Below the pieces are notes generated by a model. That model did no database searches. It was not told the DNA's origin and saw only the letters and a program-made list of their open reading frames with translations. From Myxococcota bacterium (lineage in GTDB: Bacteria; Myxococcota_A; UBA796; CAJQPC01), in contig DASCPX010000107.1 in the NCBI GenBank assembly GCA_036012755.1, positions 23,828-87,827 on the forward strand: a stretch of 64,000 bases of DNA, given 5' to 3'. The position numbers and the translations under genes were made by a program. Below are positions 7,002-63,648 of this stretch, piece after piece. Positions within the stretch are counted from its first letter, which is position 1. Each line of letters opens with the position of its first letter.

Positions 7002-7991
7002 CAGCCTCAGGGCGCCGAGGACCTCGTCGATCCGCGCGAGCTCTTCGTCGGCCAAGGACAGATGCATCGCCGCCGCGTTCTCCGCGGCCTGACCCCCGTC
7101 GCGGGCCCCGACGATGGCTGCGGTCACACCCGGCCTCGAGAAGGTCCAGGCGATGCTCATCTGAGCGAGGGTCACCCCGTGTTCCTCCGCGATGGGCTGG
7201 AGCTTCGAGAGGGCCTCTGCGACGGCGCGGCGGTTCTCGGGAGAAAAGCGGGGCAGCTCCCCCCGGCGGTCTCCTGGCGGGAAGACCCGCTCGGCGGTGA
7301 CCTTGCCCGTGAGCAGCCCCTGCTCCAGCGGCGAGTAGACGATGACGGCGACCTCGTGCTCCCGGCACCAGGGCAGCACGTCGGCCTCGATCGCTCGATC
7401 CAGGGCGCTGTAGCGTGGCTGGGTAGAGGCCAGCGGCACATCTCCGAGGGCTCGCTGTGCCCGCTCGAGGAGCTCGGGGCCGAAGTTCGAGACCCCGATC
7501 GCGTCGATCTTGCCTTCCCCTTTGAGCTCCAGCAGGGCGCCCATCGTGTCCTCGACTGGGGTGGTTCCGTCGGGCCAGTGACACTGGTAGAGGTCGATGC
7601 GCTCGACGCCGAGGCGCGTCAAGCTGGCCTCGCACTCCAGCCGGATGCTCTCCGGACGCAGGTTCTTGGTCACCTGGACGTTCCCGAGACGGGCCGCCCG
7701 GGTCTGGAAGAAGGCCTCGCCTCCAGGGACCGAGCTGTCCCAGCGCAGGCCGGCCTTCGTTGCGATCCGCACCTCGCGGCCGCGGATGGCCCTGCCGATG
7801 ACATGCTCGCTGTGGCCGAAGCCGTAGATCGGAGCCGTGTCGATCCAGCCGACGCCGTGGTCGATGGAGGCTGCGATGGCCTCTGCGGCCTTGTCGTCGT
7901 CGGTGTCGCCCCAGAACCAGCCGCCGATGGCCCAGGCTCCGAAGACGACGGGGTCGACCTCGAGGCTGCAGCGACCGAGGGGGCGTCTCAT
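6993..7991 (-). CDS. Aldo/keto reductase
   Basis: GAWAIGG, DTAPIYGFGHSE, IDLYQCHWPD, IGVSNF and YSPLEQGLLTGK motifs; ATGA overlap with the upstream gene. Confidence 0.93.
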   Translation of the reverse strand: MRRPLGRCSLEVDPVVFGAWAIGGWFWGDTDDDKAAEAIAASIDHGVGWIDTAPIYGFGHSEHVIGRAIRGREVRIATKAGLRWDSSVPGGEAFFQTRAARLGNVQVTKNLRPESIRLECEASLTRLGVERIDLYQCHWPDGTTPVEDTMGALLELKGEGKIDAIGVSNFGPELLERAQRALGDVPLASTQPRYSALDRAIEADVLPWCREHEVAVIVYSPLEQGLLTGKVTAERVFPPGDRRGELPRFSPENRRAVAEALSKLQPIAEEHGVTLAQMSIAWTFSRPGVTAAIVGARDGGQAAENAAAMHLSLADEELARIDEVLGALRLSG

Positions 7992-9808
7992 TGCTCGAGC
8001 GCCTCCAGGAGCTCCAGCATCTCCTCGGGAGAGGGCTGCTGACCGGGAATGACGGGAGCCAGCTCCGGGGCGCCGCCCACACCGAGCATCGCGAAGAGGT
8101 CCTTGGGCGACATGCCGAGGAACTTCATGCCCTGCTCCAGGCCCTCGGCCATCTCTTCGCCGAGCAGGATGCGCAGGGCGGCGTGACCCTCCGGATCCAG
8201 GCCGAAGTCCTCGTCGCCCCAGGCCTCCTTCCACCATCGGCGACCCTTGCCGGTGGCATCCGTGGCGCCGTGGCGTTCCAGGGAGCTCAGCCAGTCCTCT
8301 GTCCCTACCAGCTCCCAGGCGTGCTCCTCTGTGGCGGCGCGGAGGGCGCGATCGAGGGCGTCGCGGCCGAGGTCCTCTTCCAGGTCGACGTAGAGGTAGG
8401 GCGCCTTGCCGTAGACCAGGGCGGCGTACTCCAGGGTGGAGGAGAAGCTGGTCGTCGGTCGCGCAGCGGCTGCGTCCTGGCCGTCCATGAGCCGGAACAG
8501 GGCGAAGTTGGCCTTGACGCTCCGGTCGCGCAGGTCGTCCCCGAGCACAGTGCCTGCGAGGTACTGGGCCAGCGGCTCGTCGAGGGCGGGCTGGTCGTGG
8601 GCGTCGCTGCCGACCAGACCCGGGAACCACTGGTGAGCGACCTCGTGGGCGACGACGAAGCGGCGCTGCTCGGCCACGACGGCGGTCATGTCGGGCACGC
8701 CCATGCCCATGCCGCCCATCTGCTGGAGCATCTGGTAGGTCGGATCCTGGCTCGTGGTCGGGTCGCGGTAGAGGAAGCCGGCGACGAGGATCAGCGAGGA
8801 GAACTCGACCCCTCCGGCCCCTCCGGTCAAGGTCGCCTCGACGACGTCGAGCTCCGTGAAGGGGTAGTCGGCGATGCGCTCGTCGAGGGCCTGGAGGCTC
8901 ATCGTCGCGTCGGCGAGGGCTGCGTCGGTGGCCTGGGCGTCCCGGGAGAGCCCCCAGCTGCGCACGAGCACATCGCCGAGCCGTCGCTCGGAGACGTGGA
9001 AGTCCCGCGACGCGATGAGGACCAGGTCGCGCGCCCCGACCCCGACGCCCTCGACGACCTGGACGTCGCCCTCTACCTTTGGCTCGGAGTCGACGAGGTT
9101 GGTGACCACGCGAAGGCCCACCGGAGTGACGACCCGGACGTCGAAGGCCAGCGGTGCGTTCCAGGCGAGGTCGCCGATGCCGCTGGGAGGCGGGGTCTGG
9201 AAGGCGCCGTCGCGGTACGGGGCGATGGTCGGGAAGGCGCTCGCGGCGGTCAAGAGCCCGTCTCCCTGGCCGAGCAGGCCGTAGTCCGCGGCCTCGATGG
9301 GCCCCTGGGACATGCCGGCGGATGCCTGGGCCCAGACGTCGTTGGTCTCGGTGGTCAGGAGCTTCAGGGTCCCGCCGAACTCCACCTCGATGGCCACCTG
9401 TCCGCCCGGGGGGATCGGCGAGGCGAAGTCCAGCTCTGCCAGGGTCGGCCTCACCGATCGAAGGGTCGCGCCCGGGCTCTCCGCCCGCCGAAGCTCCAGG
9501 CTGGCGGTGGTCGCGGCCCCCAGCTCCTTCGGGGCGTTCGGGTGCAACAACAGCGGCAGCGTCGAGATCGGCCCGTCGGTCGTGTTGGTCCAGGTGATGG
9601 TGCCGCGACCCTCGTAGCGGTTCGCCACGTCCGAGATCGACAGGTCCAGCTCGTAGCGGGGGAGCACATGGAGGGGCCCGACGACCTCGATGAAGCCCTC
9701 CGCGTCACGCAGGAGCTCCGCGCCGGGGACCTCTACGACCTCGACGACCTGCTCCACCGGCGCCACCGGTTCCTCCGCTGCCTTGCTGAAACAGGCGAGC
9801 CACCACAT
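7988..9808 (-). CDS. M1-family zinc aminopeptidase, probable lipoprotein
   Basis: GGVEF, HEVAHQWF...E (HExxH-x18-E-like) and VYGK motifs; LAC lipobox. Start uncertain (9808 or 9835). Confidence 0.85.
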   Translation of the reverse strand: MWWLACFSKAAEEPVAPVEQVVEVVEVPGAELLRDAEGFIEVVGPLHVLPRYELDLSISDVANRYEGRGTITWTNTTDGPISTLPLLLHPNAPKELGAATTASLELRRAESPGATLRSVRPTLAELDFASPIPPGGQVAIEVEFGGTLKLLTTETNDVWAQASAGMSQGPIEAADYGLLGQGDGLLTAASAFPTIAPYRDGAFQTPPPSGIGDLAWNAPLAFDVRVVTPVGLRVVTNLVDSEPKVEGDVQVVEGVGVGARDLVLIASRDFHVSERRLGDVLVRSWGLSRDAQATDAALADATMSLQALDERIADYPFTELDVVEATLTGGAGGVEFSSLILVAGFLYRDPTTSQDPTYQMLQQMGGMGMGVPDMTAVVAEQRRFVVAHEVAHQWFPGLVGSDAHDQPALDEPLAQYLAGTVLGDDLRDRSVKANFALFRLMDGQDAAAARPTTSFSSTLEYAALVYGKAPYLYVDLEEDLGRDALDRALRAATEEHAWELVGTEDWLSSLERHGATDATGKGRRWWKEAWGDEDFGLDPEGHAALRILLGEEMAEGLEQGMKFLGMSPKDLFAMLGVGGAPELAPVIPGQQPSPEEMLELLEALEQ

Positions 9809-9932
9809 GCCCAAGTAAACCAGTGAATCGGTCAATCAGTGAACCAGCGATGGTGCATCGCGCCGTTTGACGATCCTGCGAACCTGGCCAGCCACCGGCT
9901 GGAGGTGAGACGCCAGCGGGCTATGAGCGGGC

Positions 9933-11611: not shown

Positions 11612-12112
11612 CTACTCGCCTCCGCCGTCGTCTCCGGTCTCTGTCGGGGTCCAGCCCGTAGCGACGCCGATGTTGCTGGGCTCGGCCTCCGAGTCCGTGA
11701 TGCGCACGGCGAAGTCCATCTCCGTGTCGTAGGGGATGGAGCCGCCGACCTGCAGGTAGAGGCCGAGGTTCTCTGCGGTCTCGTTGCAGGCGGCGCTGTC
11801 TTGCCGAGGGGTCCAGGTCTTGTCTCCGGCGGCTGTGCCGCTGGTGTCGACCGCGCCGTCGGGGGTCTCGTCCCACCAGATCTCCATGGTCACGACGTCG
11901 AGGTTGCCGTCGGCGTCCTCTGTGTCGGCCCAGATCAGGATCGTGGGGTAGGGCGTGCCCTCGAAGTCCTGGACTCCGCCGTTCTCGAGCGCGACCTCGT
12001 TGATCACGGGGTCGTTGCCGAAGCACTCCAGGGTCGAGTCGTCGCCGCCCAGGGGCGGGACGTTGCTGTCGCCGGCCGGCTTGTCGCAGGAAAGGAAAAG
12101 GAGCAGTGACAT
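11612..12112 (-). CDS. Hypothetical acidic lipoprotein (beta-rich)
   Basis: GGAGG RBS; MSLLLFLSC lipobox; GC3-rich codon usage. Confidence 0.7.
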   Translation of the reverse strand: MSLLLFLSCDKPAGDSNVPPLGGDDSTLECFGNDPVINEVALENGGVQDFEGTPYPTILIWADTEDADGNLDVVTMEIWWDETPDGAVDTSGTAAGDKTWTPRQDSAACNETAENLGLYLQVGGSIPYDTEMDFAVRITDSEAEPSNIGVATGWTPTETGDDGGGE

Positions 12113-12159
12113 CGAAGTCCTCCGAGCCCAGAAAGCTATCACCGGCGTTAGTGGCCGGC

Positions 12160-21304: not shown

Positions 21305-23179
21305 GTGCGTGAGCCGCTCGACATCCTCGCCCGCTATGGAGCAGCTCGGAGCGCCGTCATGGTGTCCGGAACCGAACAGGTGCGCGAAGGGGAGGGTGGA
21401 CGCCTGGGCGCCTCGGTCGAGGCCCACGGCATCGAGCCCCTCGCCGGCCTGCTCTGGTCGATGGCCGAGCTCGAGGCGCTGGAGCTCGTCGACGCCGACG
21501 TGACGCTGCGGCTGGTGCGCAACGGCGTGGGCGCCGCGCTGTCGGTGGCCTGGGCCTCCGGCGAGGTCTTCGAGGAGACCGTCGACCTCGCGCCGCATCC
21601 AGGCCTGGACGAGGGCCGGCCGAGCTTCCTCCCGGACTCCGGGAGCCGCATCCACGACGTCGCCGCGGCGCTGTCGGACCCGAGTCGGTCGCTGTTCGTG
21701 GTCGAGGGGGGCGAGGGCCTTCGCTGGTACGGCGCCGGCCACTTTGGCAGCGGCGGCGGCGCCCTGCCGCTGGTGGCCCAGGCCGGGCCCTGTCAGCCCC
21801 TGGGTCCGGCGAGCTTCCGGCGGCGCCACGGCCTGCGCGCCAACTACCTCGGGGGCGCGATGGCGGGAGCCATCAGCTCGGCCGCGATGGTCCAGGCCAT
21901 GGGCGAGAGCGGGATGCTCTGCTTCTTCGGCGCCGGCGGCCTGCCGCTGCCAGAGGTCGAGAAGAACCTCATCGACATCAAGGCAGTGCTCGGGGACAGG
22001 CCAGCTGGCTTCAACCTCCTCCACAACCCCGTGGAGCCGGCGATCGAGGACAGGACGGTCGAGCTCTTCCTGGAGCACGGCTGCACCTACGTGAGCGCCA
22101 GCGCCTTCATGGGGCTGACGCCGGCGATCACGCGCTACCGCTACACGGGCATCCACCTCGACGACAGCGGCGCCATCGTGTGTCCGAACCGCGTCTTCGC
22201 CAAGGTCTCCCGGACAGAGGTCGCCGAGCACTTCCTGCGCCCTGCCCCTACCACTCTCCTGGCGGAGATCGTGGCCGCCGGCGGACTCACGGAGAGCGAG
22301 GCGGAGCTGGCCTCGCACCATCCGATGGCGGACGCCATCACGGCAGAGGCGGACAGCGGGGGGCACACCGATCGACGTCCTCTGCCGGTGCTGTTGCCGC
22401 TGATCCTGCGCCAGCGGGACCGGGTCTCCAGGGAGCTCGCCTACGCGGAGCGGGGGATCGAGGTCTTCGTCGGGGCGGCGGGCGGCCTCGGCTCGCCGGA
22501 GTCGATCGTGGCGGCCTTCGCCATGGGCGCCGACTTCGTGCTCACGGGCTCGGTGAACCAGGCAACGACCGAGGCGGGCACCTCGGCCAGCGCCAAGGCG
22601 ATGCTCCTCGAGGCGGGCATGGCGGACGTGGGCCTCGGCCCGGCGCCGGACATGTTCGAGCTCGGGGCGCACGTCCAGGTGCTGTCCAGAGGCACGATGT
22701 TCGCCAACCGCGGGACGCAGCTCTACGCGGTCTACAAGGAGCACGCGGACTGGGACCTCGTCCCGGAGAAGACGCGGAAGAAGATCGAGAAGCAGATCCT
22801 CGGTCGCCCCTTCGCCGATGTCTGGTCGGACTGCGTCGACTACTGGTCCGAGCGGGACATCGGCCAGATCGAGCGCGCCGAGGCGGTGGGCCGGCACAAG
22901 ATGGCGCTCGTCTTCCGCTGGTACCTGGGAATGTCGAGCCGCTGGGCTCGCATCGGAGACACCAAGCGCAAGCGGGACTACCAGATCTGGTGTGGCCCGG
23001 CGATGGGTGCTTTCAACGACTGGGTCGCGGGGACGACCCTGGAGCCGCTCGAGGCCCGCGGCGTCGTGCGGGTCGCCGACGCCCTGCTCGAGGCCGCGGC
23101 GGTCCTCGCCCGGGCCCGACGGCTGGAGGCTCGTGGCGTCCCGATTCCGGCCGAGGCGTGGCAGGTCTCGCCCTCCTAG
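21305..23179 (+). CDS. pfaD: PfaD-family trans-acting enoyl reductase with N-terminal extension
   Basis: GAMAGAISS, AKVSRTEVA, AEADSGGHTD, GAAGGLG, VLTGSVNQ, DMFELGAHVQVL and DYQIWCGPAMGAFNDWV motifs. Confidence 0.88.
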   Translation: MREPLDILARYGAARSAVMVSGTEQVREGEGGRLGASVEAHGIEPLAGLLWSMAELEALELVDADVTLRLVRNGVGAALSVAWASGEVFEETVDLAPHPGLDEGRPSFLPDSGSRIHDVAAALSDPSRSLFVVEGGEGLRWYGAGHFGSGGGALPLVAQAGPCQPLGPASFRRRHGLRANYLGGAMAGAISSAAMVQAMGESGMLCFFGAGGLPLPEVEKNLIDIKAVLGDRPAGFNLLHNPVEPAIEDRTVELFLEHGCTYVSASAFMGLTPAITRYRYTGIHLDDSGAIVCPNRVFAKVSRTEVAEHFLRPAPTTLLAEIVAAGGLTESEAELASHHPMADAITAEADSGGHTDRRPLPVLLPLILRQRDRVSRELAYAERGIEVFVGAAGGLGSPESIVAAFAMGADFVLTGSVNQATTEAGTSASAKAMLLEAGMADVGLGPAPDMFELGAHVQVLSRGTMFANRGTQLYAVYKEHADWDLVPEKTRKKIEKQILGRPFADVWSDCVDYWSERDIGQIERAEAVGRHKMALVFRWYLGMSSRWARIGDTKRKRDYQIWCGPAMGAFNDWVAGTTLEPLEARGVVRVADALLEAAAVLARARRLEARGVPIPAEAWQVSPS

Positions 23180-24003
23180 TCGCCTGCGGCGGGCCCTCCG
23201 ACACCAGCTTGCACGCCGCGGTGCTCGCCGCGGACCTGGAGTCGGTCGAGGTCGCCGACTGCGGCACCATCCGTCACGAGGAGCTCCGTGGGGAGTGCCA
23301 GCTCTATGCTGCCTTCACGGTGGGCTCCCGGCGGGGCGAGGAGCTGGGACCCCGCTGCGACGCGGTCGACGAGGGGGTCTGGCGCGACGAGTGCTACTTC
23401 CTCGCTGCAGAGGACCTTCGGCGGCGCCAGCGGGACTTCGCGGCCGCCGGAGCCCTGTGCGCCAGGTCGAGTCGTTTCGTCGACGACTGCGGCCAGCACC
23501 TCTGGCAGTCCCCGGTCAAGGTCATCGTCGACCGGCACCTCGCCACGGGCGACCTCGAGTCCGCGCTGGCGGAGGCCACGCCGGTCTACTGCGAATGGGA
23601 GACCATCCTGGGCGAGGACAGCGACATCGCCAGCCGCTTCTGGCGCAAGCTCTTCGGGGGCTTCTTCGAGCACACGCGGGTCCTCGATACGGAGCGCTGT
23701 GCCCCCCTCGACGACGTGGCGGAGGCCCACTGCCGCGCTGCGGTCGCGCAGGTCTACCTGCGGCGTCTCCACATGCTGAGCGTCGCGGAGCCGGACCTGC
23801 TCTGCAAGAGCACGGCTTCGAACAAGCCCTCCGTCGAGGCGCTCCGGCGGCTGCCCAACCTCCAGGCCGAGCCCGACCCCCTGTTGCAGTCGCTGCTGGA
23901 GGAGCAACACCGCTGGGCCTGCGAGCTCGGCGAGGGCGGCCTGCCCCCGATGGGCGCCGAGCTGTTGGAGGTAGAGGGCACACCCGTGGACTGCTCGGGC
24001 TAG
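23158..24003 (+). CDS. Cys-rich helical-repeat lipoprotein
   Basis: GTG start overlapping the pfaD end; LALLVAC lipobox; repeated C-x8/9-C units (C...RGEC, C...RDECYF, C...DDC, C...AHC). Confidence 0.7.
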   Translation: MAGLALLVACGGPSDTSLHAAVLAADLESVEVADCGTIRHEELRGECQLYAAFTVGSRRGEELGPRCDAVDEGVWRDECYFLAAEDLRRRQRDFAAAGALCARSSRFVDDCGQHLWQSPVKVIVDRHLATGDLESALAEATPVYCEWETILGEDSDIASRFWRKLFGGFFEHTRVLDTERCAPLDDVAEAHCRAAVAQVYLRRLHMLSVAEPDLLCKSTASNKPSVEALRRLPNLQAEPDPLLQSLLEEQHRWACELGEGGLPPMGAELLEVEGTPVDCSG

Positions 24004-24012
24004 GATCGTGGC

Positions 24013-24237
24013 GTGCTCGCCCTCCTCCTGACCGCCTGCGGCAACCCATGCATGGACCTCTGCCAGCGGCACGAGGTCTACCTGGACGAGTGCGGCTATG
24101 GCTGGTCGACGGTCTTCGCCGAGGAGGGCTGGGCTTCGATCGAGGACTGCTACGAGGACCAGGCCGAGGCCTCTGACGAGGAGCGGGACGCCTGCGCCGA
24201 GGAGCTCTCCGAGCCAGAGCAGCGGAGCTGCTATTGA
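24013..24237 (+). CDS. Small Cys-rich acidic lipoprotein
   Basis: MLALLLTAC lipobox; six further Cys in 74 aa; overlaps the next start. Confidence 0.7.
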   Translation: MLALLLTACGNPCMDLCQRHEVYLDECGYGWSTVFAEEGWASIEDCYEDQAEASDEERDACAEELSEPEQRSCY

Positions 24238-25187
24238 TCCACTTCGCCCCAGGCCGCGCCTGCCTCCTCGGCGAGCACTGCGACTGGGCCGGGGGCGTCG
24301 ACGCCGCCTGCCTCGTCGTGCCCCTGAAGGTCGGCATAGAGGTCACGGTGCGTCGCGCCGATTGGGGGCTCGTGGTCCACAGCGCCTACGGGGTGACGCG
24401 CATGGGGGCGGACATGCGCTGCGTCGCAGAGGACCCGAACCGCTACGTCGCCGCGGTGGCGAGGGAGCTGCTCCGCCAGGGGTTGTCCCTCCCTCCAGCC
24501 CGTGTCGTCGTGCGCTCCACGCTGCTTGCGGGGCGCGGGTTCTCGTCCTCGGCCGCCGTCTGTGTCGCCGCCGCCCGCGCCCTGGCGGCTCACGCCGGGG
24601 TCGAGGTGGACGCCGCGGGCGTCGCCTACCGCGCCGAGCGCAGGGATCTCGGCGTCAACTGCGGCGAGATGGACCAGCTGGCCAGCGCAGCCGGGGCGCC
24701 ACTGTTCATCGACTGGGGGCCGCCCCGCGCCGAGCGCCGCCTGAGACCGGGCCTCTCGATCCCGCTGTTGGTCGCCGCCTTCCCCGACGAGATCTCCGCG
24801 GCACCGATCCTGGCGGCCCTGGCCGAGGCTCGCCCCAGCGCGGCCTTCGCAGCCTGGGGCGCCGGGGCTCGACGCGCCGCCGTGGCGCTGGAGGCTGGGG
24901 ACCTCGTCGCCCTCGGGGCCGAGCTCGACGCGGCCCAGGCGGTCTACGAGTCACTGGAGCTGCCGGCGCTCCAAGCTCCGAAGCTCGGTGAGACCTGCGA
25001 TGCGCTCAGAGCGCTGGGCGCCCTCGGCGCCAAGTTCTCCGGTGCAGGTGGGGACCGCAGCCTGGTCGCCGTGTTCGAGGACGATGGGGGCCTGGCTCGT
25101 GGGCGCGTCCTGCTGGAGGAGCGGGGGCTGATCGTGCTCGACGCGTCGCTCGCTCAGAGCTCGTCGACCACGCCCACGTCCATGTAG
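24234..25187 (+). CDS. GHMP kinase (galactokinase-like)
   Basis: PGRACLLGEHCD, GRGFSSSAA, NCGEMDQ and GAKFSGAGG motifs. Confidence 0.85.
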   Translation: MIHFAPGRACLLGEHCDWAGGVDAACLVVPLKVGIEVTVRRADWGLVVHSAYGVTRMGADMRCVAEDPNRYVAAVARELLRQGLSLPPARVVVRSTLLAGRGFSSSAAVCVAAARALAAHAGVEVDAAGVAYRAERRDLGVNCGEMDQLASAAGAPLFIDWGPPRAERRLRPGLSIPLLVAAFPDEISAAPILAALAEARPSAAFAAWGAGARRAAVALEAGDLVALGAELDAAQAVYESLELPALQAPKLGETCDALRALGALGAKFSGAGGDRSLVAVFEDDGGLARGRVLLEERGLIVLDASLAQSSSTTPTSM

Positions 25188-27630: not shown

Positions 27631-28358
27631 GGGGCCTTCTCGACGCGGATGGTGTCGACGCCCGGCAGGTCCTTGAGGTCTCCGACGGCGTCGTGGCTGC
27701 CGGTGGCGTAGGCCTCTTCGACAAGCTCGGCGGCCTCTTCGACGCTGCCGGAGCCGAAGACGGCCACGAAGACCTCTGGTCCGCTGGCTCCGTCGAGCTG
27801 GATCGAGCGCTCCAGGAAGTGCCGCTCGCCCGGGATGATGGGGTGGGGGACGTCGCCCTCGCCGGGGTAGTAGACCGACAGCACGCCGTCACCGTCGATG
27901 CTGAGCAGCACGAGGTCGGACAGTCCCGGGGCGTAGTAGCTGAACTGGAGTCGGTCTCCCTCGGACAGCAGGGCGCCCTCGGTGCCCGGCCGCAGCTCGC
28001 CGTCGACGAGGACCACGAAGTCGAGGTCCGGATCTCCCTTCACGCCGGCGTAGTCCCGCGGGATGACGAAGATGAGGACCGCCAGCGCAGCCGCCAGGGT
28101 CGGCACCAGCCACCAGGCCCTCCACCAGGGGCGGCGGGCCTCTTCCCGAGGGCTCTCCATGCGCGGCTCTTCGGCCATGCGCGCGGCGGCCTTCGAGAGG
28201 ATCTCGAAGTCGAATGGCTCCAGCGCGACAGCGGAGAGGGCGACCGCCTCGGCGAAAGCCCGCTCGGCCTCGATGCCCTGGGCGGGGAGCTCCCCCACCA
28301 TCCGGCGCGCCAGCTCCAGCTGCGAGGGGCGGCTGCCGTCGTTGACGTCGAAGATCAC
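27627..28358 (-). CDS. Single-pass anti-sigma-like protein with DUF4384-like periplasmic domain
   Basis: Follows the ECF sigma; TM helix after RRPWWRAWW; 'KG...L..GDRLQFSY...LLSIDGDGVLSVYYP...SIQLDG' pattern. Confidence 0.75.
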   Translation of the reverse strand: MIFDVNDGSRPSQLELARRMVGELPAQGIEAERAFAEAVALSAVALEPFDFEILSKAAARMAEEPRMESPREEARRPWWRAWWLVPTLAAALAVLIFVIPRDYAGVKGDPDLDFVVLVDGELRPGTEGALLSEGDRLQFSYYAPGLSDLVLLSIDGDGVLSVYYPGEGDVPHPIIPGERHFLERSIQLDGASGPEVFVAVFGSGSVEEAAELVEEAYATGSHDAVGDLKDLPGVDTIRVEKAP

Positions 28359-48236: not shown

Positions 48237-49280
48237 ATGCTTCTGAGCCTCGCGCTCATGCTCGGTCTGGCTGACGCCGCCGAGGTGACGACAAAGGACA
48301 CCGGCCACGTCCAGAACCCTGTGTGGTCTCCGGACGGCCAGTGGGTGGCCTTCGAAATCAACAACATGTCCAACTCGGTCGAGCTCTGGCTCGCCAAGGT
48401 CCAAGGGGCGAACCCGGGCTCTCCGACGGAGCTGCGCATTCCAGGCGCGTCGACGACCTTTGGGACAGGCGGCTACCTAGCGGCTTCGCCGACGTGGGCC
48501 TCCAAGCCCTCGCTGATGCTGATCTTCGAAGGCAGCAACCCCGGCGGGACGATGCGGCTCTACTACGCCACGCCGGGAGCCGGCGCGCCAAACGAGCTCA
48601 TCCAGGCCAGCCAGCTGGCCGGCAACCTGAGCGCGCCATCGATGTCGACCTCGGGGGAGCGCTTCGCCTTCGTGTCGGACAGCAGCGGCAACGGCGACAT
48701 CTACGTCTGGCAGATCCAGAGCGGTGACATGGAGGTCACCTTCACCACCCAGCAGTCAGAGCACTTCCCGGCCTGGAACGACGCCGGCGACACGCTCGCG
48801 CTCTCGCGCAAGAACAACGGCACAGAGGACCTCTTCACCTGGACGACTGCGGTCCCCGGGATGAAGCCGCTCAAGGGCGGAAACGGTGACCAGACCAGGC
48901 CCGTGTGGGTCGATGATCAGGTCGCCTACTTCACCTCTGAGAGGGGCGAGGGCCTCTGGGACATCGCCATCACCGGCTCCGGTGGCAAGCGCACGGTCGT
49001 CGCCCGCAACGTCAGGCTCCCGGTGCGCTCGGCGCCGGCGATCTCGCCCGACGGCCAGTGGGTCGCCTACGGCACGATGACCGCCGAGCTCGACGACCAG
49101 ATCCTGCTGACGCGACTCGATGGCTCGAAGACGGTCGAGATCAAGACAGGGCACAAAGCCTGCGGCGAACCCTCCCTGATCGAGACCGACGGCCGCCTGC
49201 TGCTCGCCTACACGGGTCTTCCGGACGAGGGCAGCGACTGGCGACGCCTGCACGTCATCGACATCACAGGCGAGATCTAG
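48237..49280 (+). CDS. TolB-like beta-propeller (PD40 repeats)
   Basis: NPVWSPDGQWVAF, FPAWNDAG, RPVW and PAISPDGQWVAY repeats; no TolB N-domain. Confidence 0.85.
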   Translation: MLLSLALMLGLADAAEVTTKDTGHVQNPVWSPDGQWVAFEINNMSNSVELWLAKVQGANPGSPTELRIPGASTTFGTGGYLAASPTWASKPSLMLIFEGSNPGGTMRLYYATPGAGAPNELIQASQLAGNLSAPSMSTSGERFAFVSDSSGNGDIYVWQIQSGDMEVTFTTQQSEHFPAWNDAGDTLALSRKNNGTEDLFTWTTAVPGMKPLKGGNGDQTRPVWVDDQVAYFTSERGEGLWDIAITGSGGKRTVVARNVRLPVRSAPAISPDGQWVAYGTMTAELDDQILLTRLDGSKTVEIKTGHKACGEPSLIETDGRLLLAYTGLPDEGSDWRRLHVIDITGEI

Positions 49281-52209: not shown

Positions 52210-52851
52210 TCAGAACCAGACGCAGGTGCGCTCGGTGATCCAGTTCACGGCGGTGGAGTCGTAGTAGCCGCTGGCGAACTGGTTTCCGCTGTCGCCGAAG
52301 AAGAAGTCGGCGGTGCCGTCGTCGTTCTCCCGCACGTCGTAGGTGTAGCTCCAAGGCGCTGGGTCCCAGAGATCGCTGGGGCAGTCGGTGCTACCGGTGT
52401 CGACCTCTGCGTCGAAGCTGAGCCCGTAGTTGCAGCTGTTGCACGTGTTCGCGTCGGTCTGGGTCGCCGTGATGGTCCAGACGACCTCGCAGTCCAGGCC
52501 CCCGTTCCACTCGCTGGTGCCGAACAGCAGCCACCTCTCGGTGCCGGTCCAGTCCGCCTTGTCGTACCAGGCCGTGTAGTAGGAGGTCGCTCCAGCCTGG
52601 TCCTCGTAGCCCGAGGCCGTGTCGCAATAGGTCGTGTCGATGCCTTCCGTGGGGTCGGTCAGGGTGTCCGTGTCCGTGTCCGAGTCGGTGTCCGCGTCGG
52701 CGTCGGTGTCGGTGTCCGAGTCCGCGTCCGCGTCCGAGTCGGTGTCGGTGTCGGTGTCGGAGTCGGCGTCGGTGTCGGCGTCAGCCTCGCTTCCGGAGTC
52801 CGAGGTGTCCTTGTCGCCACAGGCGAAGGAGAAGAGGAGTAGCGTCATCAT
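52210..52851 (-). CDS. Lipoprotein with Asp-X dipeptide repeat linker and Cys-containing C-domain
   Basis: FACGDK lipobox; (DA/DT/DS)n tract. Confidence 0.8.
   Translation of the reverse strand: MMTLLLFSFACGDKDTSDSGSEADADTDADSDTDTDTDSDADADSDTDTDADADTDSDTDTDTLTDPTEGIDTTYCDTASGYEDQAGATSYYTAWYDKADWTGTERWLLFGTSEWNGGLDCEVVWTITATQTDANTCNSCNYGLSFDAEVDTGSTDCPSDLWDPAPWSYTYDVRENDDGTADFFFGDSGNQFASGYYDSTAVNWITERTCVWF
52663..52786 (-). repeat. 6-bp-unit coding tandem repeat (Asp-Ala/Thr/Ser)n
   Basis: gtcggt/gtcggc/gtccga units, about 20 dipeptides. Confidence 0.9.
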
Positions 52852-54565: not shown

Positions 54566-55537
54566 GTGTTCCTGCTGCTGGCGAGCGCTCACGGCGCCGA
54601 CCTCGACTTCGGCTACACCCCCACACTCGGCCCTGGCGAGAAGCCTGCGCTGTACGTCACGCCGAACCGACCGCTCAAGGAGCTCCAGGTCGCCTGCGAG
54701 CCAGGTGGCAGCTGGACGAAGACGGGGCTCTCGGGCGGGGAGAAGTTGACCTTCACATTGCCTCGGGACCCGGCCGTGACCTCGGCCGAGTGCACCGTCC
54801 GCGCCGAGTTCGAGGACGGCTTCCTGGACGAGATCGTGATCCCGTTGGAGTGGGAGATCGGCGGCAGCCTCAGCGTGGACCTCTCCCGCGCCTCGGCTGA
54901 CATCACGGAGCACACGCTGACGGTGAAGGTGACGGGCTACGTCGAGACCGCCCAGATCGTCGCCTATGGCGAGGGGAAGACCGAGCGGGAGCGCGCCACG
55001 GTGCAGGTGGGCGACGGCCCGGGGGACATCACCCTGCCGTGGACCGGTGACCCTGGCGAGGTGGTGCTGCTCGACGTGAAGCTCGAGAACTCCAGCGCCT
55101 GGGCAGGCTTCACCTTCAGCCCCTGGTTCCTCGACATCCCACACGACGACGTGCTCTTCGCGACGGACTCCGATGTGATCGAGCAGGACGAGGAGTGGAA
55201 GCTCGAGGCCACGCTGGCGGATCTGAACCGGGTGCTCGACAAGTACGGCGAGGTCGTCCCCGTGAAGCTCTACATCGCGGGGTGCACCGACACGGTCGGG
55301 GACGGCGCCTCCAACCGCAACCTCTCCAGCCGCCGCGCGAAGGCCATCGCGAAGTGGCTGAGATCGCATGGCTATTCCGAGCCGATCTACTACCATGGCT
55401 TCGGCGAGGGGCTCCTGGCCGTGCCGACCGGGGACGGTGTGGACGAGCAGTCCAACCGGCGGGCGCTCTACCTCGTGGGCGCCTCGCCACCGCCTGCGGG
55501 CTCTGGCATCCCTGCGGTGTCCTGGCAGGCCCTCTGA
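54566..55537 (+). CDS. OmpA-family peptidoglycan-binding protein with N-terminal beta domains
   Basis: GGAGG RBS; VLFATDS, AGCTDTVG..NRNLSSRRAKAI, GFGE and NRRA motifs. Confidence 0.88.
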   Translation: MFLLLASAHGADLDFGYTPTLGPGEKPALYVTPNRPLKELQVACEPGGSWTKTGLSGGEKLTFTLPRDPAVTSAECTVRAEFEDGFLDEIVIPLEWEIGGSLSVDLSRASADITEHTLTVKVTGYVETAQIVAYGEGKTERERATVQVGDGPGDITLPWTGDPGEVVLLDVKLENSSAWAGFTFSPWFLDIPHDDVLFATDSDVIEQDEEWKLEATLADLNRVLDKYGEVVPVKLYIAGCTDTVGDGASNRNLSSRRAKAIAKWLRSHGYSEPIYYHGFGEGLLAVPTGDGVDEQSNRRALYLVGASPPPAGSGIPAVSWQAL

Positions 55538-55538: not shown

Positions 55539-56060
55539 TCACCAGGAGTAGGTGACCGACTGATCCGAGAGGTGGACGATCACAGGCGATGAGCCTGCCC
55601 AGGTCTGGAAGGGGCTCAGATCCCAGCTGTGGGACTCGGTGATGTAGGCCTCGCAGTCGTCGCCGTTGGCGTTGTGGCCGAGGGTCACCCAGGTCTCCGT
55701 GGGGTTCGAGTCCGTGAGGACTCCGTCCCAGCAGAGCTCGAAGTCGTGGTCCTGGCAGCCGCCGCTGTAGCTGACCTCGAGGGTGAGCGTGTCGCCGCTG
55801 AGGCCCATGCTGTTGAGCGCGTAGGCGTCGGTGTGGGCCGGGGTGCACTGCTCCACCTGCGGACTGACATCGGTGTCCGAGTCAGCGTCGGTGTCGGCGT
55901 CCGCGTCAGCATCGGCGTCAGCGTCGGCGTCGGTGTCCGAGTCGGCGTCGGTGTCGGTGTCGGTGTCGCTGTCCGCGTCAGTATCCGCGTCGGCCTCGAC
56001 GGCCCCCGAGTCGACGGGCTCCTTGTCGCCGCATGCCACTGAAAGCAGCAGGAAGATCAT
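55539..56060 (-). CDS. Lipoprotein with Asp-X repeat linker and small beta-sandwich (NigD-C-like) domain
   Basis: GGAGG RBS; VACGDK lipobox; GDTLTLEVSYSGGC..HDF..HNANGDDCEA..WDL. Confidence 0.78.
   Translation of the reverse strand: MIFLLLSVACGDKEPVDSGAVEADADTDADSDTDTDTDADSDTDADADADADADADTDADSDTDVSPQVEQCTPAHTDAYALNSMGLSGDTLTLEVSYSGGCQDHDFELCWDGVLTDSNPTETWVTLGHNANGDDCEAYITESHSWDLSPFQTWAGSSPVIVHLSDQSVTYSW
55869..55995 (-). repeat. 6-bp-unit coding tandem repeat (Asp-Ala/Thr/Ser)n
   Basis: Encodes ADADTDADSDTDTDTDADSDTDADADADADADTDADSDTD. Confidence 0.9.
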
Positions 56061-58051: not shown

Positions 58052-58058
58052 GGTGTCA

Positions 58059-59306: not shown

Positions 59307-61159
59307 CGGCGCCCTCGCCTGCGCAGGGGTGTGAGGAAGGTCAGTCCCAGCGGGGGCACACGGAGGCGGAGCGAGGCGGGTTGGTCCTGCCAGGGCTCGG
59401 CGACAGCCCGGGTGCGCGTGTTGACCACGTCGCTGCCGCCGTAGCTGGCCTCGTCGCTGTTGAGGAGCTCGCGCCACCAGCCGGCTTCCGGCACCCCGAC
59501 CTGGTAGTCCTCGCGCGGGATCGGCGTGAAGTTGGCGACGACGAGCACCGGGCGATGATCGGAGCCCATCCGGAGCATCGCGACCACCGACAGCCGGCCG
59601 TCGTCCAGCCCGCTCCAACAGACGCCGTCTGTGGACAGGTCGCCTGCGTGGAGGGCTCCGTTGCGGCAGTACAAGGCGTTGAGATCGGTCACGAATCTCT
59701 GGACGCCAGCGTGGTCCTCTTGCGCGAGCAGGGCCCAGTCGAGCTCTCGGTCGTGGCTCCACTCCTCCAGCTGAGCGAGCTCCATGCCCATGAACAGGAG
59801 CTTCTTTCCGGGCTGGGCGAACTGCCATCCGAAGAGCAGGCGGCAGCTGGCCAGCTTCTGCCACCGGTCCCCTGGCACCCGACCCATGAGCGAGCCCTTT
59901 CCATGCACCACCTCGTCATGGGACAGGGCGAGCACGAAGCTCTCCGAGTGGGCGTAGACCGAGCGGAAGGTGAGCTCGCCGTGGTGGTGCGTGCGATGGA
60001 TGGGATCCCGGGCGAGGTGGGAGAGCGTGTCGTTCATCCACCCCATGTCCCACTTCAGGCCGAAGCCGAGGCCGCCGTCGTAGGTGGGCTTCGAGACTCC
60101 GGGCCAGGCCGTGCTCTCCTCGGCGACGATGAGCACCTCTGGAAAGTCGCGATGGAGGACCTCGTTGAGCTCCTTCAAGAGCGAGACGGCTTCGAGGTTC
60201 TCGCGCCCGCCGTGTTCGTTCGGCAGCCAGTCCTCGCGGGAGTAGTCGAGGTAGAGCATCGAGGCGACGGCGTCGACGCGCAGCCCGTCTGCGTGGAACT
60301 CCTCGAGCCAGTAGCGGGCAGACGACAGCAGGAAGGAGCGCACCTCTGGCCGCCCGTAGTCGAAGACCGCCGTCCCCCAGTCCGGGTGCTCGCCGCGTCG
60401 GGGGTCCGGGTGCTCGTAGAGGGCGGTGCCGTCGAAGCGGTAGAGCCCGTGGTCGTCCTTCGGGAAGTGCGCCGGGACCCAGTCGAGCAGGACAGCGATG
60501 CCGCGCTGGTGGAGGTGGTCGATGAGGAAGCGCAGCCCGTCGGGATCACCGAAGCGCGCGGTGGGCGCGAAGTGCCCCAGGGCCTGGTAGCCCCACGAGC
60601 CGTAGAAGGGGTGCTCCATGACCGGGAGGAACTCGACGTGGGTGAACCCCATCTGGCGCACGTAGTCCGCGAGCGGCTCGGCGATCTCGCGGTAGGAGTA
60701 CTGGCGCCCATCGGGATGGCGCCGCCAGCTGCCGAGGTGGATCTCGTAGATGGAGATCGGCCTCTGGCGCCAGTCCGGAGCACGCCGCTTCATCCACCGA
60801 CCGTCTCGCCAGCGGTGGACCGAGGCGGTGATCCGAGAGCTGTTCCCGGGGGGGAGCTCCTGCGAGAACGCCATCGGATCGGCTCGGTCGACCCAGCTGT
60901 CGTCGGAGCCGAGCACTGCGTACTTGTAGTGGTGCCCCGGGCGGGCCTCTGGAACGCTCAGCGACCAGATGCCGTCGGCCGCGGCCATCGACAGCCCCTC
61001 CCAGGCGCTGAAGTCGCCCTTGACCATGACCTCTCGCGCGTTCGGCGCCCACACGGCGAAGCGCGTGCCCTGGCCCAATCCGTGGGCACCCAGGAAGGAG
61101 AAGATCCGGCTGTGGTGGCCCTCGTGGAAGCCCTGGATGTCGCCGGCGGCCAGCATCAC
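59303..61159 (-). CDS. glgB: 1,4-alpha-glucan branching enzyme
   Basis: FAVWAPNA, IYEIHLGSW, SWGYQ, DGLRVDAVASMLYLDYSR, AEESTAWP and LSHDEVVHGKGSL motifs. Confidence 0.97.
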   Translation of the reverse strand: MMLAAGDIQGFHEGHHSRIFSFLGAHGLGQGTRFAVWAPNAREVMVKGDFSAWEGLSMAAADGIWSLSVPEARPGHHYKYAVLGSDDSWVDRADPMAFSQELPPGNSSRITASVHRWRDGRWMKRRAPDWRQRPISIYEIHLGSWRRHPDGRQYSYREIAEPLADYVRQMGFTHVEFLPVMEHPFYGSWGYQALGHFAPTARFGDPDGLRFLIDHLHQRGIAVLLDWVPAHFPKDDHGLYRFDGTALYEHPDPRRGEHPDWGTAVFDYGRPEVRSFLLSSARYWLEEFHADGLRVDAVASMLYLDYSREDWLPNEHGGRENLEAVSLLKELNEVLHRDFPEVLIVAEESTAWPGVSKPTYDGGLGFGLKWDMGWMNDTLSHLARDPIHRTHHHGELTFRSVYAHSESFVLALSHDEVVHGKGSLMGRVPGDRWQKLASCRLLFGWQFAQPGKKLLFMGMELAQLEEWSHDRELDWALLAQEDHAGVQRFVTDLNALYCRNGALHAGDLSTDGVCWSGLDDGRLSVVAMLRMGSDHRPVLVVANFTPIPREDYQVGVPEAGWWRELLNSDEASYGGSDVVNTRTRAVAEPWQDQPASLRLRVPPLGLTFLTPLRRRGRR

Positions 61160-61203
61160 ACCTCCGGCCCGTCAGACCGCCGAGCCCCCACGCCGGCACG
61201 CAG

Positions 61204-61209
61204 TATCCT
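61204..61209 (+). promoter_or_regulatory. Candidate -10 box (TATCCT) of a leaderless transcript
   Basis: TAnnnT 5 nt upstream of ATG 61215; no strong SD. Confidence 0.4.
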
Positions 61210-61214
61210 GGACC

Positions 61215-62066
61215 ATGCTCACGCTCCTGGCCTGCACCCCGGAGACGCTCCTGCTCCAGGACGCAGGCAACTACACCTATGACGGCTCGCTGGAGATCCC
61301 GGGCCACGAGCTCGTGCCGCTCTCCGACAACACCCTCGACTGGTCCGGCGTGGACTCGGACCTTTCCTGCCACGAGCTCGACCCGGTCACCGACATCGAC
61401 AACGTCCAACTCCTGGTCTTCCCCGAGCTGGACGAGGCCGCGGTCGCCGCTGGCTTCGCCGAGGACAGCCTCAAGCAGGTCGACCTCGGCTCCTACGCCT
61501 CCTTGGATCCCCAGGGAGGCGTGACGAGCGCGGCCATCTCCGAGCTCACCTTCTTCGGCACGATCGTGAACCTCCAGGACGAGTTCGACGAGGGCAGCGG
61601 CACCTGGGTCGCCCTCCTCGGTCGGGGCACGGAGGTCGGGGTGGGGACCTACAGCATGGCCTTTCTCCGCCCGGACAGCTCGAGCAGCGAGACCCGCGTG
61701 GCCCTGGTCGGCGGGTGTGGTGTGCTCGAGTACGAGGTGGACGTCTCGGCCACGACCGAGCTCTCCGGCCGTGTCGAGGTCGTCGACTGGTCCGAGCTGA
61801 GCACGACGGGGCAGGGGAGACCCTTCGATCCCCTGGACGTCAGCGAGGTCATGCTCGCTCGCTTCGAGGACGGGACGGATCTCGAGGCCGACTTCCTCGA
61901 CCTGGAGCTCATCGCCGACGAGCTGGTGGTGCAGGACCACGGCGGCGGCACCTCGACCGAGCTCGATCTCTCGGTGGTGGACAGCGGCGAGACCTGGCTC
62001 CTGGCCCTCGGCTGCGACAGCTGCACGAGCCCGGCGCCGCTCTACATGACTCGACTCGTGCGCTGA
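61215..62066 (+). CDS. Hypothetical acidic lipoprotein with two related domains
   Basis: MLTLLAC lipobox; internal duplication (LDWSGVDSD..ELDP / VDWSELSTT..PFDP; TWVALL / TWLLAL). Confidence 0.75.
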   Translation: MLTLLACTPETLLLQDAGNYTYDGSLEIPGHELVPLSDNTLDWSGVDSDLSCHELDPVTDIDNVQLLVFPELDEAAVAAGFAEDSLKQVDLGSYASLDPQGGVTSAAISELTFFGTIVNLQDEFDEGSGTWVALLGRGTEVGVGTYSMAFLRPDSSSSETRVALVGGCGVLEYEVDVSATTELSGRVEVVDWSELSTTGQGRPFDPLDVSEVMLARFEDGTDLEADFLDLELIADELVVQDHGGGTSTELDLSVVDSGETWLLALGCDSCTSPAPLYMTRLVR

Positions 62067-62085
62067 GGGCGGGGATGAGACCCAG

Positions 62086-62102
62086 CCGCGACATTGTCGC
62101 GG
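62086..62102. promoter_or_regulatory. Perfect 8-1-8 palindrome CCGCGACA-T-TGTCGCGG (possible operator)
   Basis: Directly visible; 22 nt upstream of ATG 62125. Confidence 0.4.
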
Positions 62103-62124
62103 GGCCCTGCAGGTGAGGAGGAAC

Positions 62125-62247
62125 ATGACCTGTACACGACGACAGACGCTCCACGGACTGCTCGTCGCTCTCCCCCTTCAACCCCGGACATCAACAACCA
62201 GGAAGACTCCAACGGCTTCGATACACCACTTGACGGGACACAGCTGA
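62125..62247 (+). pseudogene. 5' stub of a probable Tat-exported protein gene, truncated by IS sequence
   Basis: GAGGAGG RBS; MTCTRRQTLHGLLVALPL then non-coding-like sequence; 40 codons. Confidence 0.45.
62222..62244 (+). mobile_element. IS256-family-like terminal sequence
   Basis: TACACCACTTGACGGGACACAGC resembles the TACACCAC...GGGACAC right ends I recall for IS256-family elements; unverified. Confidence 0.45.
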
Positions 62248-62389
62248 GAGCGCCCGGCGCGCACCAGCGCGACCATCTGCGCGCGGAACTCAGCCGGGTA
62301 CGGGGAACGATGTCGTTTGGCCATGTGACTCCTTTTCTCGAAAACGGAAAGGTGTCCACAAAACCGGGTTCACTCCAACTCCAACTCCA
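62245..62389 (-). mobile_element. IS3-family left-end remnant with truncated orfA
   Basis: TGGAGTGAACCCGGTTTTGTGGACACC IR-like end; AAGGAG RBS; ATG 62324 gives MAKRHRSPYPAEFRAQMVALVRAGRS, an OrfA N-terminus cut before the HTH. Confidence 0.75.
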
Positions 62390-62442
62390 GGCATCACCGG
62401 CTCTTTGCTCGGGGCGTGGCAAGGCGCTGATAGCGTCAGGGC

Positions 62443-63648
62443 GTGTTGCTCTTCCTCGCTTGTGGGCCCCCGTCGGTGCCGATGATGGTCGGCCCCATCG
62501 ACACAGGCGCGGACTGGGTCGACGAGGCCCCCGGCCCCGAGGGCATCGGCGAGGTCCCAGAGCTCGACGTCTTCTCGGAGGAGCTCATCCACAGCTTCGC
62601 GCTGGAGCTGGACAGCGACGCCCGGTACGCCCTGCAGCGCGACCCCTACGAGTGGGCCGAGGGGGTCTTCGTCGTGGCAGGGGTCCGGTACGAGGTCGGG
62701 GTGCGGGTGAAGGGCTCCAGCACCTACGAGTCCATCGACGACAAGCCCTCGCTCAAGCTCAGCTTCGACTTCGTCTCCGAGGGGCAGCGCTTCCACGGAA
62801 TGCGGCGCCTCAACCTGCACAACATGACGCTGGACCCGATGCTCTGCAGCGAGGTCCTCACCTGGGCCATCTTCCGCGCCGCGGAGCTCCCGGCGCCGCG
62901 GGTCGGCTACGCGCGCCTCGACATCAACGACGACGACCGCGGTCTCTACAGCGTCGTCGAGGACATCGAGGACGACTTCCTCGGGCGCTGGTTCGAGGAC
63001 TCGGGCGGCAACCTCTACGAGAACCGCGAGAACTACTGCGACCTGAGCTCGGTGAGCTGCTTCGAGGCCGAAGAGGACGACGAGGGCAACGATGACGCCC
63101 TCCAGGCACTGGTCGAGGCGGCAGCCCTGGAGGGCTCGGACTGGCTCGCCGCGATGCAGGACCAGATGGACTGGGAGCGCTTCGTGGGCTTCCTGGCGAT
63201 GGAGGCTGCCATCGCCCACTGGGACAGCTACAGCTTCGATGTGTCCAACTACCGCCTCTACCACGAGCCCACGGCCGACCGCTTCACCTTCATCCCCTGG
63301 TCCGGGGACCTCGGCTTCGGTTACCGGCCCTGGAGCTACCCGGACTGCGGCAAGCACGGCGTGGACCCCGGGGACTACGACATGGGCCGCCTCGCCGCCA
63401 GCTGCGAGGAGGTCTCCGAGTGCCACGAGGCGGTGCTCGACGCGCTCTTGGAGCAGGCCGATCTCCTGGAGGCCCTGGACGCCTCGACGATGGCCGCCGA
63501 GGCCCTCGACCGCGTGCGGGAACAGGCCGCGACAGATCCCGAGACCCGTAACGATATGGACCACTTCGAGGAGCACGGCCGGTGCGTGCAGGACTTCCTG
63601 GCTGGCCGTCCAGAGGTCATCCGCGACTGGGTGGCAAAGGAGCGCTAG
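62443..63648 (+). CDS. CotH-family kinase, lipoprotein
   Basis: MLLFLAC lipobox; VGVRVKGSST, KPSLKLSFD, GLYSVVE, HWDSY, NYRLY and FIPWSGDLGF motifs. Confidence 0.88.
   Translation: MLLFLACGPPSVPMMVGPIDTGADWVDEAPGPEGIGEVPELDVFSEELIHSFALELDSDARYALQRDPYEWAEGVFVVAGVRYEVGVRVKGSSTYESIDDKPSLKLSFDFVSEGQRFHGMRRLNLHNMTLDPMLCSEVLTWAIFRAAELPAPRVGYARLDINDDDRGLYSVVEDIEDDFLGRWFEDSGGNLYENRENYCDLSSVSCFEAEEDDEGNDDALQALVEAAALEGSDWLAAMQDQMDWERFVGFLAMEAAIAHWDSYSFDVSNYRLYHEPTADRFTFIPWSGDLGFGYRPWSYPDCGKHGVDPGDYDMGRLAASCEEVSECHEAVLDALLEQADLLEALDASTMAAEALDRVREQAATDPETRNDMDHFEEHGRCVQDFLAGRPEVIRDWVAKER

Follow-up and report, generated by a model that had tools for sequence, protein, structure and literature searches.

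Can bacterial proteins be exported behind a leader of half a dozen uncharged residues? The question is raised by a stretch of 64,000 nucleotides from a Myxococcota bacterium (contig DASCPX010000107.1 of assembly GCA_036012755.1, positions 23,828 to 87,827; hereafter the window), in which eleven genes encode N-termini with a lipobox preceded by only 5-10 uncharged residues. A preliminary description of the window had proposed that this lineage uses such very short uncharged leaders in place of canonical signals, and our genome-wide counts bear this out, with 707 of 5621 genes carrying one in front of cargo that appears to be extracytoplasmic. We confirm that the short uncharged leaders are real and genome-wide, about one gene in eight encoding a probable lipoprotein with such a leader.

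Frequency of short uncharged leaders

Gene calls and classes for the source genome (6.73 Mb, 68% GC, 96% complete) were made with our own scripts, which gave 5758 genes covering 91% of the genome; 5621 were left after start re-picking and removal of genes shorter than 60 residues or open at a contig end. The short lipoprotein class was defined as Met followed by an uncharged Leu-rich stretch and a lipobox, and its 707 members have a median of 7 residues before the Cys (range 5-13). The same 5621 genes include 110 basic (canonical) lipoprotein signals and 8 long uncharged ones. Before start re-picking, the leader pattern was present in 685 of the 5758 genes, where approximately 10 would be expected by chance. 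Near gene 5' ends 7.5% of start codons were followed by it (840 of 11160), compared with 0.087% of start codons in gene interiors (72 of 82437) and 0.041% of those in non-coding frames (70 of 169703). When the position of Cys was plotted over all genes, its frequency peaked at residue 8 (5.8% vs approximately 1.3% elsewhere) and there was no second peak at residues 15-25. A negative control of 1360 genes from unrelated bacteria contained 5 short-only leaders, apparently truncated calls.

A second group of 375 short uncharged leaders resembled substrates of signal peptidase (SPase) I. An early Cys was found in 74 of these, many being lipobox variants, and 301 were without one. The 301 leaders have an estimated median length of 11 residues, the cleavage site being an estimate only, and Ala peaks at residues 9-11, where the A-x-A motif is itself part of the class definition; an in-frame stop lies within 5 codons of 57 SPase I-type leaders. 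Canonical SPase I-like signals, counted by a rough rule, number approximately 121, and the canonical and short types coexist in one genome.

Short leaders in the window

All eleven lipobox N-termini given in the preliminary description were recovered, as were the in-frame TAG codons exactly 4 codons upstream of three of them, two stop/start overlaps, and three tiny SPase I-type signals (54566, plus strand; 36009, minus strand; 1446, plus strand), each of which has GGAG(G) 9-11 nt upstream. One short lipobox gene (52851, minus strand) and two short SPase I-type genes (27630, minus strand; 48237, plus strand) had been missed. The initial Met is encoded by GTG at 62443, 24013, 30073 and 23158, and the start at 26062 is also GTG. 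The genes and one promoter-like element are listed by position.

62443-63648, plus strand: CotH-family protein, MLLFLAC, six uncharged residues and then lipobox Cys7; GTG start, in-frame TAG 4 codons upstream, no alternative start.
62431-62436, plus strand: TANNNT -10-like box TAGCGT, a probable leaderless promoter 12 nt before the start at 62443; matches the genome-wide -12/-13 peak.
61215-62066, plus strand: protein without family identification, MLTLLAC, lipobox Cys7; TATCCT at -11 (61204-61215), and an ATG 26 codons upstream that yields no hydrophobic leader.
55539-56060, minus strand: acidic repeat protein, MIFLLLSVAC, lipobox Cys10; GGAGG at -9, in-frame TAG 11 codons upstream, no alternative start.
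54566-55537, plus strand: OmpA-domain protein with an 11-residue uncharged SPase I-type signal; GGAGGAG before the GTG start, other starts 16-25 codons upstream.
52210-52851, minus strand: acidic repeat protein with a short uncharged lipobox leader, Cys at 10-13 depending on the chosen start; in-frame TGA 10 codons upstream.
48237-49280, plus strand: TolB-like beta-propeller with an uncharged SPase I-type signal; in-frame TAA 2 codons upstream.
40824-42122, plus strand: protein without assigned family, MLLLIAC, lipobox Cys7; start overlaps the upstream stop (TGATG).
37983-38990, plus strand: TPR protein, MLLGFLWLTSC, lipobox Cys11; GGAG at -10, and a family with long basic, mid-length uncharged and short uncharged signals.
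33274-36009, minus strand: beta-helix/MopE-like repeat protein with an 11-residue uncharged SPase I-type signal and a MYXO-CTERM-like tail; GGAGG at -11, 30 upstream codons without a start.
29522-30073, minus strand: protein without assigned family, MSWLLLIAC, lipobox Cys9; in-frame TAG 4 codons upstream, imperfect -10-like box.
26059-27630, minus strand: caspase-domain protein with an uncharged SPase I-type signal.
25154-26062, minus strand: protein without assigned family, MILLLSAC, lipobox Cys8; start overlaps the upstream stop (GTGA).
24013-24237, plus strand: 74-residue Cys-rich protein, MLALLLTAC, lipobox Cys9; in-frame TAG 4 codons upstream, within TAGGAT (24001-24013).
23158-24003, plus strand: protein without assigned family, MAGLALLVAC, lipobox Cys10, the least secure start; no Shine-Dalgarno sequence, no -10 box, no ATG/GTG/TTG within 30 codons.
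11612-12112, minus strand: protein without assigned family, MSLLLFLSC, lipobox Cys9; GGAGG at -11, and a GTG 10 codons upstream without such support.
7988-9808, minus strand: M1 peptidase, MWWLAC, lipobox Cys6; in-frame stop 10 codons upstream, longest reading 14 residues without Lys/Arg.
1446-2477, plus strand: trypsin-like protease with a 12-residue SPase I-type signal (one Glu, no Lys/Arg); GGAG at -9.

Position of the translation starts

In the set of 685 starts picked blind to motifs, as the most upstream uncharged start, GGAG/GAGG words peaked at -12 to -8 in approximately 55% and TANNNT was found at -13/-12 in 17%, vs approximately 0.1% at interior starts. There was no hydrophobic excess upstream of these starts, and in the 393 genes with an open upstream frame the coding score was approximately -0.5 per codon upstream and positive from the short start onwards. 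For 513 of the 707 short lipoprotein genes there is no ATG, GTG or TTG 14-40 codons before the Cys, and for 347 there is none even if CTG and ATH are admitted; an in-frame stop lies less than 14 codons before the Cys in 133, and 160 starts abut the stop of the upstream gene. An in-frame stop exactly 4 codons upstream was found in 70 of the 685, and 65 of these stops are TAG or TAA; 69% of long genes end in TGA. The most plausible reading of this stop is that its TA belongs to the -10 box of a leaderless transcript, the TAG at -12 being part of a TANNNT-type box at 62443 (TAGCGT) and at 24013 (TAGGAT), where it is also the stop codon of the gene at 23158-24003. A sigma-70 scan of positions 61000-62600 found no two-box promoter.

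TANNNT boxes at -12/-13 were also counted by gene class after a start picking in which the TANNNT bonus was given in all classes. Among short-signal lipoprotein genes that stand first in their unit, 97 of 384 (25%) have such a box; the figure is 3 of 68 (4%) for canonical lipoprotein genes and 202 of 2389 (8%) for other genes. The short leaders behind a box are shorter than the others (7.4 vs 8.1 residues).

Comparison with 840 kb sampled from three relatives gave 48 best-hit ortholog pairs (at least 40% identity, 60% coverage), of which 33 carried short lipobox leaders in both partners, 2 were basic and 13 fell in other classes, several of these last being near misses or wrong start picks. 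At least one partner was without an upstream start in 27 of the 33 short-short pairs, and the upstream translations were not conserved between orthologs. In one family, the homologs of the gene at 37983, public gene callers had mostly picked the short start. We strongly infer that translation begins at the short start.

An annotation artefact, with the true starts lying upstream in front of normal basic signals, would find some room in the 194 of 707 genes that do have an ATG, GTG or TTG 14-40 codons before the Cys, in the few class members which are probably truncated canonical signals, and in the weak start support at 23158. The stops that close 133 genes, the 513 genes with no such codon, the motif and coding-score profiles centred on the short start, and the lack of conservation of the upstream frames all argue against it, as do a tRNA set and stop usage consistent with code 11. 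This reading is already largely refuted by the sequences, and we consider it highly improbable. Stop-codon reassignment was rejected, long open reading frames ending in TGA, TAG and TAA and the tRNA set being ordinary except for tRNA-Sec. Such a tRNA-Sec is present, and a short-signal protein at L409:8600-9103 matches a (seleno)redoxin model below the cut-off.

Cargo of the short leaders

Cysteine parity was compared in proteins with 1-8 Cys, the lipobox Cys being excluded. Short lipoproteins were even in 359 cases and odd in 150, canonical lipoproteins gave 53:25, and other proteins 1517:1596. If the lipobox Cys is counted the ratio of the short lipoproteins flips, so that this residue stands outside the disulfide parity, and the bias towards even numbers stays when MopE-like repeat proteins are left out (337:142).

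A Pfam scan covered 116 proteins taken from the 20 stretches in which short signals were most abundant, a non-random sample in which 3 of the 116 are SPase I-like. Matches were obtained for 68, mainly sulfatases, peptidases, other hydrolases, adhesion repeats, CotH, FG-GAP and MopE-like repeats, and they include c-type cytochromes, imelysin, L,D-transpeptidase, LysM and PhoD; no ribosomal or DNA-binding family was found among the 116. CxxCH motifs occur in 13 short lipoproteins, one of which, with five motifs (5-heme), is closed off by a stop lying 2 codons upstream of its short start. Of 36 SPase I-type proteins scanned, two matched the Omp85 family with scores at or slightly below the cut-off, and others were identified as a lytic transglycosylase, an M23 peptidase and a multiheme cytochrome; one histidine kinase among the 36 is a false member of the class. 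Short uncharged leaders are also present on BamD, a DegP-like protease and both LolA-family proteins. C-terminal tails which we take to be MYXO-CTERM-like were found on 37 of the 301 SPase I-type proteins vs 51 of 4088 others.

BamD is without a lipobox Cys in 27 of 28 genomes of the class, and the sequences compared from elsewhere in the phylum have one (G000:C149:39842-40597, L121-L147); the BamD of this class is probably non-lipidated.

Cysteine parity, protein families, heme motifs and orthologs indicate, if indirectly, that the short-signal cargo is located outside the cytoplasm. Were the proteins instead retained in the cytoplasm or on the cytoplasmic side of the membrane, their Cys being unmodified or S-acylated by a different enzyme, one could point to families such as amidohydrolase, rhodanese and hydrolases which are found in either compartment. 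Disulfide-type Cys parity, c-type heme motifs, Omp85, LolA-like proteins, BamD, peptidoglycan enzymes, MYXO-CTERM-like tails and orthologs with canonical lipoprotein signals all speak against such a location, and we give it very little credence.

Leader composition and comparison with canonical signals

When 879 uncharged leaders were picked with no requirement for a lipobox, Ala, Gly or Ser occupied position -1 in 92.5% of them, which points to recognition of the Lgt/LspA type, and Leu is at -3 in 60%. The short leaders have the small residue at -1 and the Cys at +1 of a lipobox. They are richer in Leu than the canonical signals (0.57 vs 0.39) and have about half the total hydrophobicity. At -2 the canonical signals of the same genome have Val, Leu, Ala or Thr. 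Behind canonical signals the early mature region was as acidic as behind short ones (net charge -2.9 vs -3.05), and codon scores were equal in short and canonical lipoproteins. We rejected the idea that the short leader is compensated by expression level or by greater acidity of the mature start, 707 short and 89 canonical lipoproteins showing no difference. The leaders are without Arg and contain no twin-arginine motif; Tat-like motifs were found in 16 other genes.

Canonical lipoprotein signals consist of n-, h- and c-regions with a lipobox, and LspA cleavage is intramembrane (PMC9360617). The leaders described here share with canonical Sec/SPase II signals an N-terminal hydrophobic stretch and a lipobox with a small -1 residue and Cys, in a genome where Lgt, LspA, Lnt and LolA are present, and their orthologs include canonical forms. 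They differ in having no n-region with Lys or Arg (by class definition, and not restorable from upstream in 513 of 707), in the merging of h-region and lipobox into one patch of 5-6 residues, and in the frequency of Leu at -2 (59%). Their median of 7 residues before the Cys (range 5-13) is shorter than the usual 15-25 residues, and compares with approximately 20 residues in PMC6952399 and a Cys position of 21.4 +/- 2.7, the mean of a Bacillota set, in PMC13068155, in which the lipoprotein pattern requires Lys or Arg.

The short SPase I-type leaders have a similar relation to their canonical counterparts. Canonical SPase I signals are tripartite (n-h-c), with a basic n-region and 18-25 residues. 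The short ones have a hydrophobic core, small residues in a putative A-x-A spacing (a motif used in defining the class), an acidic mature start and cargo such as Omp85, BamD, LolA-like and DegP-like proteins, and differ in having an estimated length of approximately 11 residues and no basic n-region. As judged from these comparisons, the short leaders would work like Sec/SPase II or SPase I signals yet depart from them in charge and length.

Related precedents come from the laboratory. In Escherichia coli, removal of the P2 positive charge left export unimpaired and a net n-region charge of zero was tolerated (PMC2034453). Mature domains bind the translocase without a signal peptide (PMC5412566). 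These studies show that positive charge is dispensable and that mature domains can reach SecA alone. The engineered signals and constructs keep a full h-region or are laboratory-made, whereas in this genome hundreds of natural genes have lost the charge and most of the leader's length. Literature searches, which covered mostly non-subscription papers, found no paper on such signals, and the accessible text of PMC11495043, on large Myxococcota secretomes, makes no mention of short signals.

The preliminary description had also expected that standard predictors would miss many of these proteins. This holds for the one published lipoprotein pattern that was applied (with one garbled part filled in), which recognised 59 of the 110 canonical signals and 0 of the 707 short ones; the expectation stands for that pattern and no further. 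Pattern-based lipoprotein annotation would miss the whole class, about 1/8 of the genes in the richest genomes of the order.

Orthologs and distribution of the trait

Orthologs in relatives do have longer signals, with long basic forms in several families. In this genome the gene adjoining bamD begins with an uncharged leader of 10 residues, where its counterparts in relatives mostly have basic signals of 14-20 residues, and an RND (resistance-nodulation-division) membrane-fusion lipoprotein shows the same swap between short uncharged and long basic forms across its orthologs. Orthologs of the M1 peptidase (start at 9808), found in 10 of 60 other genomes, carry basic lipoprotein or uncharged SPase I-type signals, and this family (7988-9808; L456-L465) alternates between the lipoprotein and the SPase I type.

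A further series came from the gene at 37983. Among 120 listed of 223 homologs, with signals taken as called in databases, 50 are long and basic, 25 are uncharged with 13-16 residues, 25 are uncharged with at most 12 and 20 are unclassified, and the switching between long and short forms keeps the Cys position fixed. On a quick tree of 117 homologs (midpoint root, careful search unfinished) the short label needs 9 changes, 8 of them forced by well-supported branches, a few changes being due to mis-called starts. Several origins of the short signals are likely from this tree, and the direction of change rests on outgroup genomes. The signals would have eroded stepwise, more than once, in one order and by way of uncharged intermediates.

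A DNA pattern of the short form matched 142 times in this genome and at least 60 times in 37 of 127 genomes of the order; kin among these are not independent and no statistical test was applied. Genomes with at least 60 matches were 26 of the 30 in one family and 6 of the 19 in the bacterium's own; two further families had 3 of 11 and 2 of 2, and three families had none. The reversed pattern, used as control, gave 0-17 matches. Outside the order, the pattern matched 2-12 times in 8 genomes belonging to the same class and 1-25 times in 42 further members of the phylum. For signal-poor genomes, counts of canonical signals were based on 20-kb stretches and pattern counts.

Export and lipidation machinery

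The preliminary description had further taken the short signals to imply altered recognition by SecA, the signal recognition particle (SRP), Lgt or LspA. This was not borne out, all components being present and no alignment column or paralog number tracking the trait. The genome encodes 2 LspA, 5 Lgt, Lnt, 3 LepB-family proteins, Ffh, FtsY, SecY, SecA, YidC and LolA. Matches across genomes were obtained for Ffh-family proteins in 39 of 40, SecY in 28 of 30 and SecA in 29 of 30, and LspA, with its two catalytic Asp motifs recognisable, is retained by 40 of 41 relatives. Alignments of SecY (28 sequences), Ffh (30) and SecA (28) contained no column cleanly separating genomes rich in short signals from poor ones, the differences between rich, poor and outgroup genomes being conservative or noisy only, and alignments of LspA (26) and Lgt (14) within the order, inspected by eye, revealed no visible difference. 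The machinery may nevertheless differ in subtle or accessory ways.

Two lspA and two lgt genes lie in a tandem lspA-lspA-lgt-lgt cluster (G000:C59:99967-102591), and the remaining three lgt genes lie elsewhere. In SecA, the final ligand of the metal-binding motif at the C-terminus is Cys in 21 of 21 aligned genomes of the order and His in 7 of 7 outgroup genomes (L361-L388).

Several candidate causes were tried and rejected: Lgt or LspA paralog number, for which there is no link with the trait; SRP loss, as Ffh and FtsY are present; deformylase loss leaving formyl-Met, there being 2 copies here and deformylase in 5 of 5 genomes; and extra SecY, SecA or YidC, each of which is a single copy. 

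A dedicated route is one alternative to use of the ordinary machinery, in which an Lgt or LspA paralog, a subtle change in SecY or SecA, or an accessory factor would be specific for short signals. The five Lgt, two LspA and three LepB-family genes, the coexistence of both signal types and the restriction of the trait to one order would fit such a route. Since Lgt paralogs number 2-7 whether a genome is rich, poor or an outgroup, short signals also occur where there is a single LspA, and SecY, SecA and YidC are single with conservative differences only, we regard it as unlikely.

Proposed route of export

The account that we consider probable, on present sequence evidence, is that the leaders are eroded Sec signals: translation would begin at the short start, the proteins would use the ordinary SecA/SecYEG translocase, and processing would follow by Lgt and LspA or by LepB. 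Delivery to the translocase would occur mostly via the mature part of the protein. The Leu-rich patch of 5-6 residues would substitute for the h-region, the free N-terminal amine would supply the sole positive charge, and an acidic early mature region (net charge approximately -3 in 19 residues) would favour export. Lgt would diacylglycerylate the Cys and LspA would then remove the leader of approximately 7 residues, after which Lnt and Lol would be able to act; these steps are suggested by the lipobox and the presence of the genes. Members of the non-lipoprotein class, with approximately 11 residues ending in A-x-A, would be LepB substrates. The n-region would have been lost gradually and the h-region shortened, more than once, in one order whose machinery tolerates short signals, and leaderless transcription may have favoured the loss of the n-region. 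Export, lipidation and cleavage of the short-signal proteins are what we infer from this evidence.

Several points weigh against this account. The gene calls are self-made, and motif fractions obtained after start re-picking are partly circular. The even-Cys bias is weaker in the 133 stop-locked genes (53:38) and there is none in the SPase I class (0.47-0.51). Residue -2 of the short signals (Leu 59%, Ile 10%, Phe 8%) departs from the small or polar A/S/T/V/I expected there. Seven residues are too short to cross the bilayer as a helix, and the substrate signal modelled as a helix in LspA has approximately 20 residues (PMC6952399). The mature region is equally acidic behind canonical signals and therefore permits the trait without explaining it, and no machinery change accounts for the tolerance of short signals in this order.

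Some of these points would suit proteins that are exported and lipidated by Lgt with the leader left uncleaved, its 6-7 greasy residues forming a shallow anchor and LspA, Lnt and Lol being skipped. The leader is too short for the modelled LspA pose, Leu at -2 is frequent, and the small -1 residue would be selected by both Lgt and LspA, so that the -1 statistic does not separate the two. We nevertheless hold this variant to be improbable: LspA with its catalytic Asp motifs is kept in nearly all relatives, it cuts a FRET (Förster resonance energy transfer) lipopeptide with five residues before the Cys in vitro (PMC6952399), and orthologs alternate between long and short forms with the Cys fixed.

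The length of the leader bears on the eroded-signal account in a further way. A leader of 6-7 residues cannot span the membrane as a helix, and the trait thus tests the loop-insertion model of Sec initiation and the site where Lgt and LspA meet their substrate. It is conceivable, though we hold this as a tentative and rather doubtful extension, that most envelope proteins of these bacteria are exported and lipidated without a membrane-spanning hairpin, the leader passing head-first into or through the translocon, or being lipidated first and held by its lipid, and then being trimmed or kept at the outer leaflet. Such a hairpin-free route, if true, would give Sec a second way of initiating export, on which about a thousand genes per genome would depend. 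If the eroded-signal account is true, the minimal natural bacterial export signal is approximately one third as long as textbooks have it, and a basic residue is dispensable. The ortholog series from long basic to short uncharged forms provides ready-made constructs for E. coli or Myxococcus xanthus, and the true minimum of a bacterial export signal becomes directly testable.

Other observations in the window

The two acidic repeat proteins (52210-52851 and 55539-56060) have long Asp-Ala/Asp-Thr/Asp-Ser repeat linkers directly after the lipobox; such linkers are common genome-wide, and those of these two proteins gave weak matches, far below the cut-off, to staphylococcal SD-repeat models. In the region 25154-28900 the export-type caspase-domain protein lies between a short-signal lipoprotein and, as judged by eye, the gene for a probable extracytoplasmic function (ECF) sigma factor. 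The divergent genes at 30073 and 30093 have starts only 20 nt apart, with no space for leaders. Open reading frames resembling a transposase fragment, again by eye, occupy positions 63092-64000 right behind the CotH gene.

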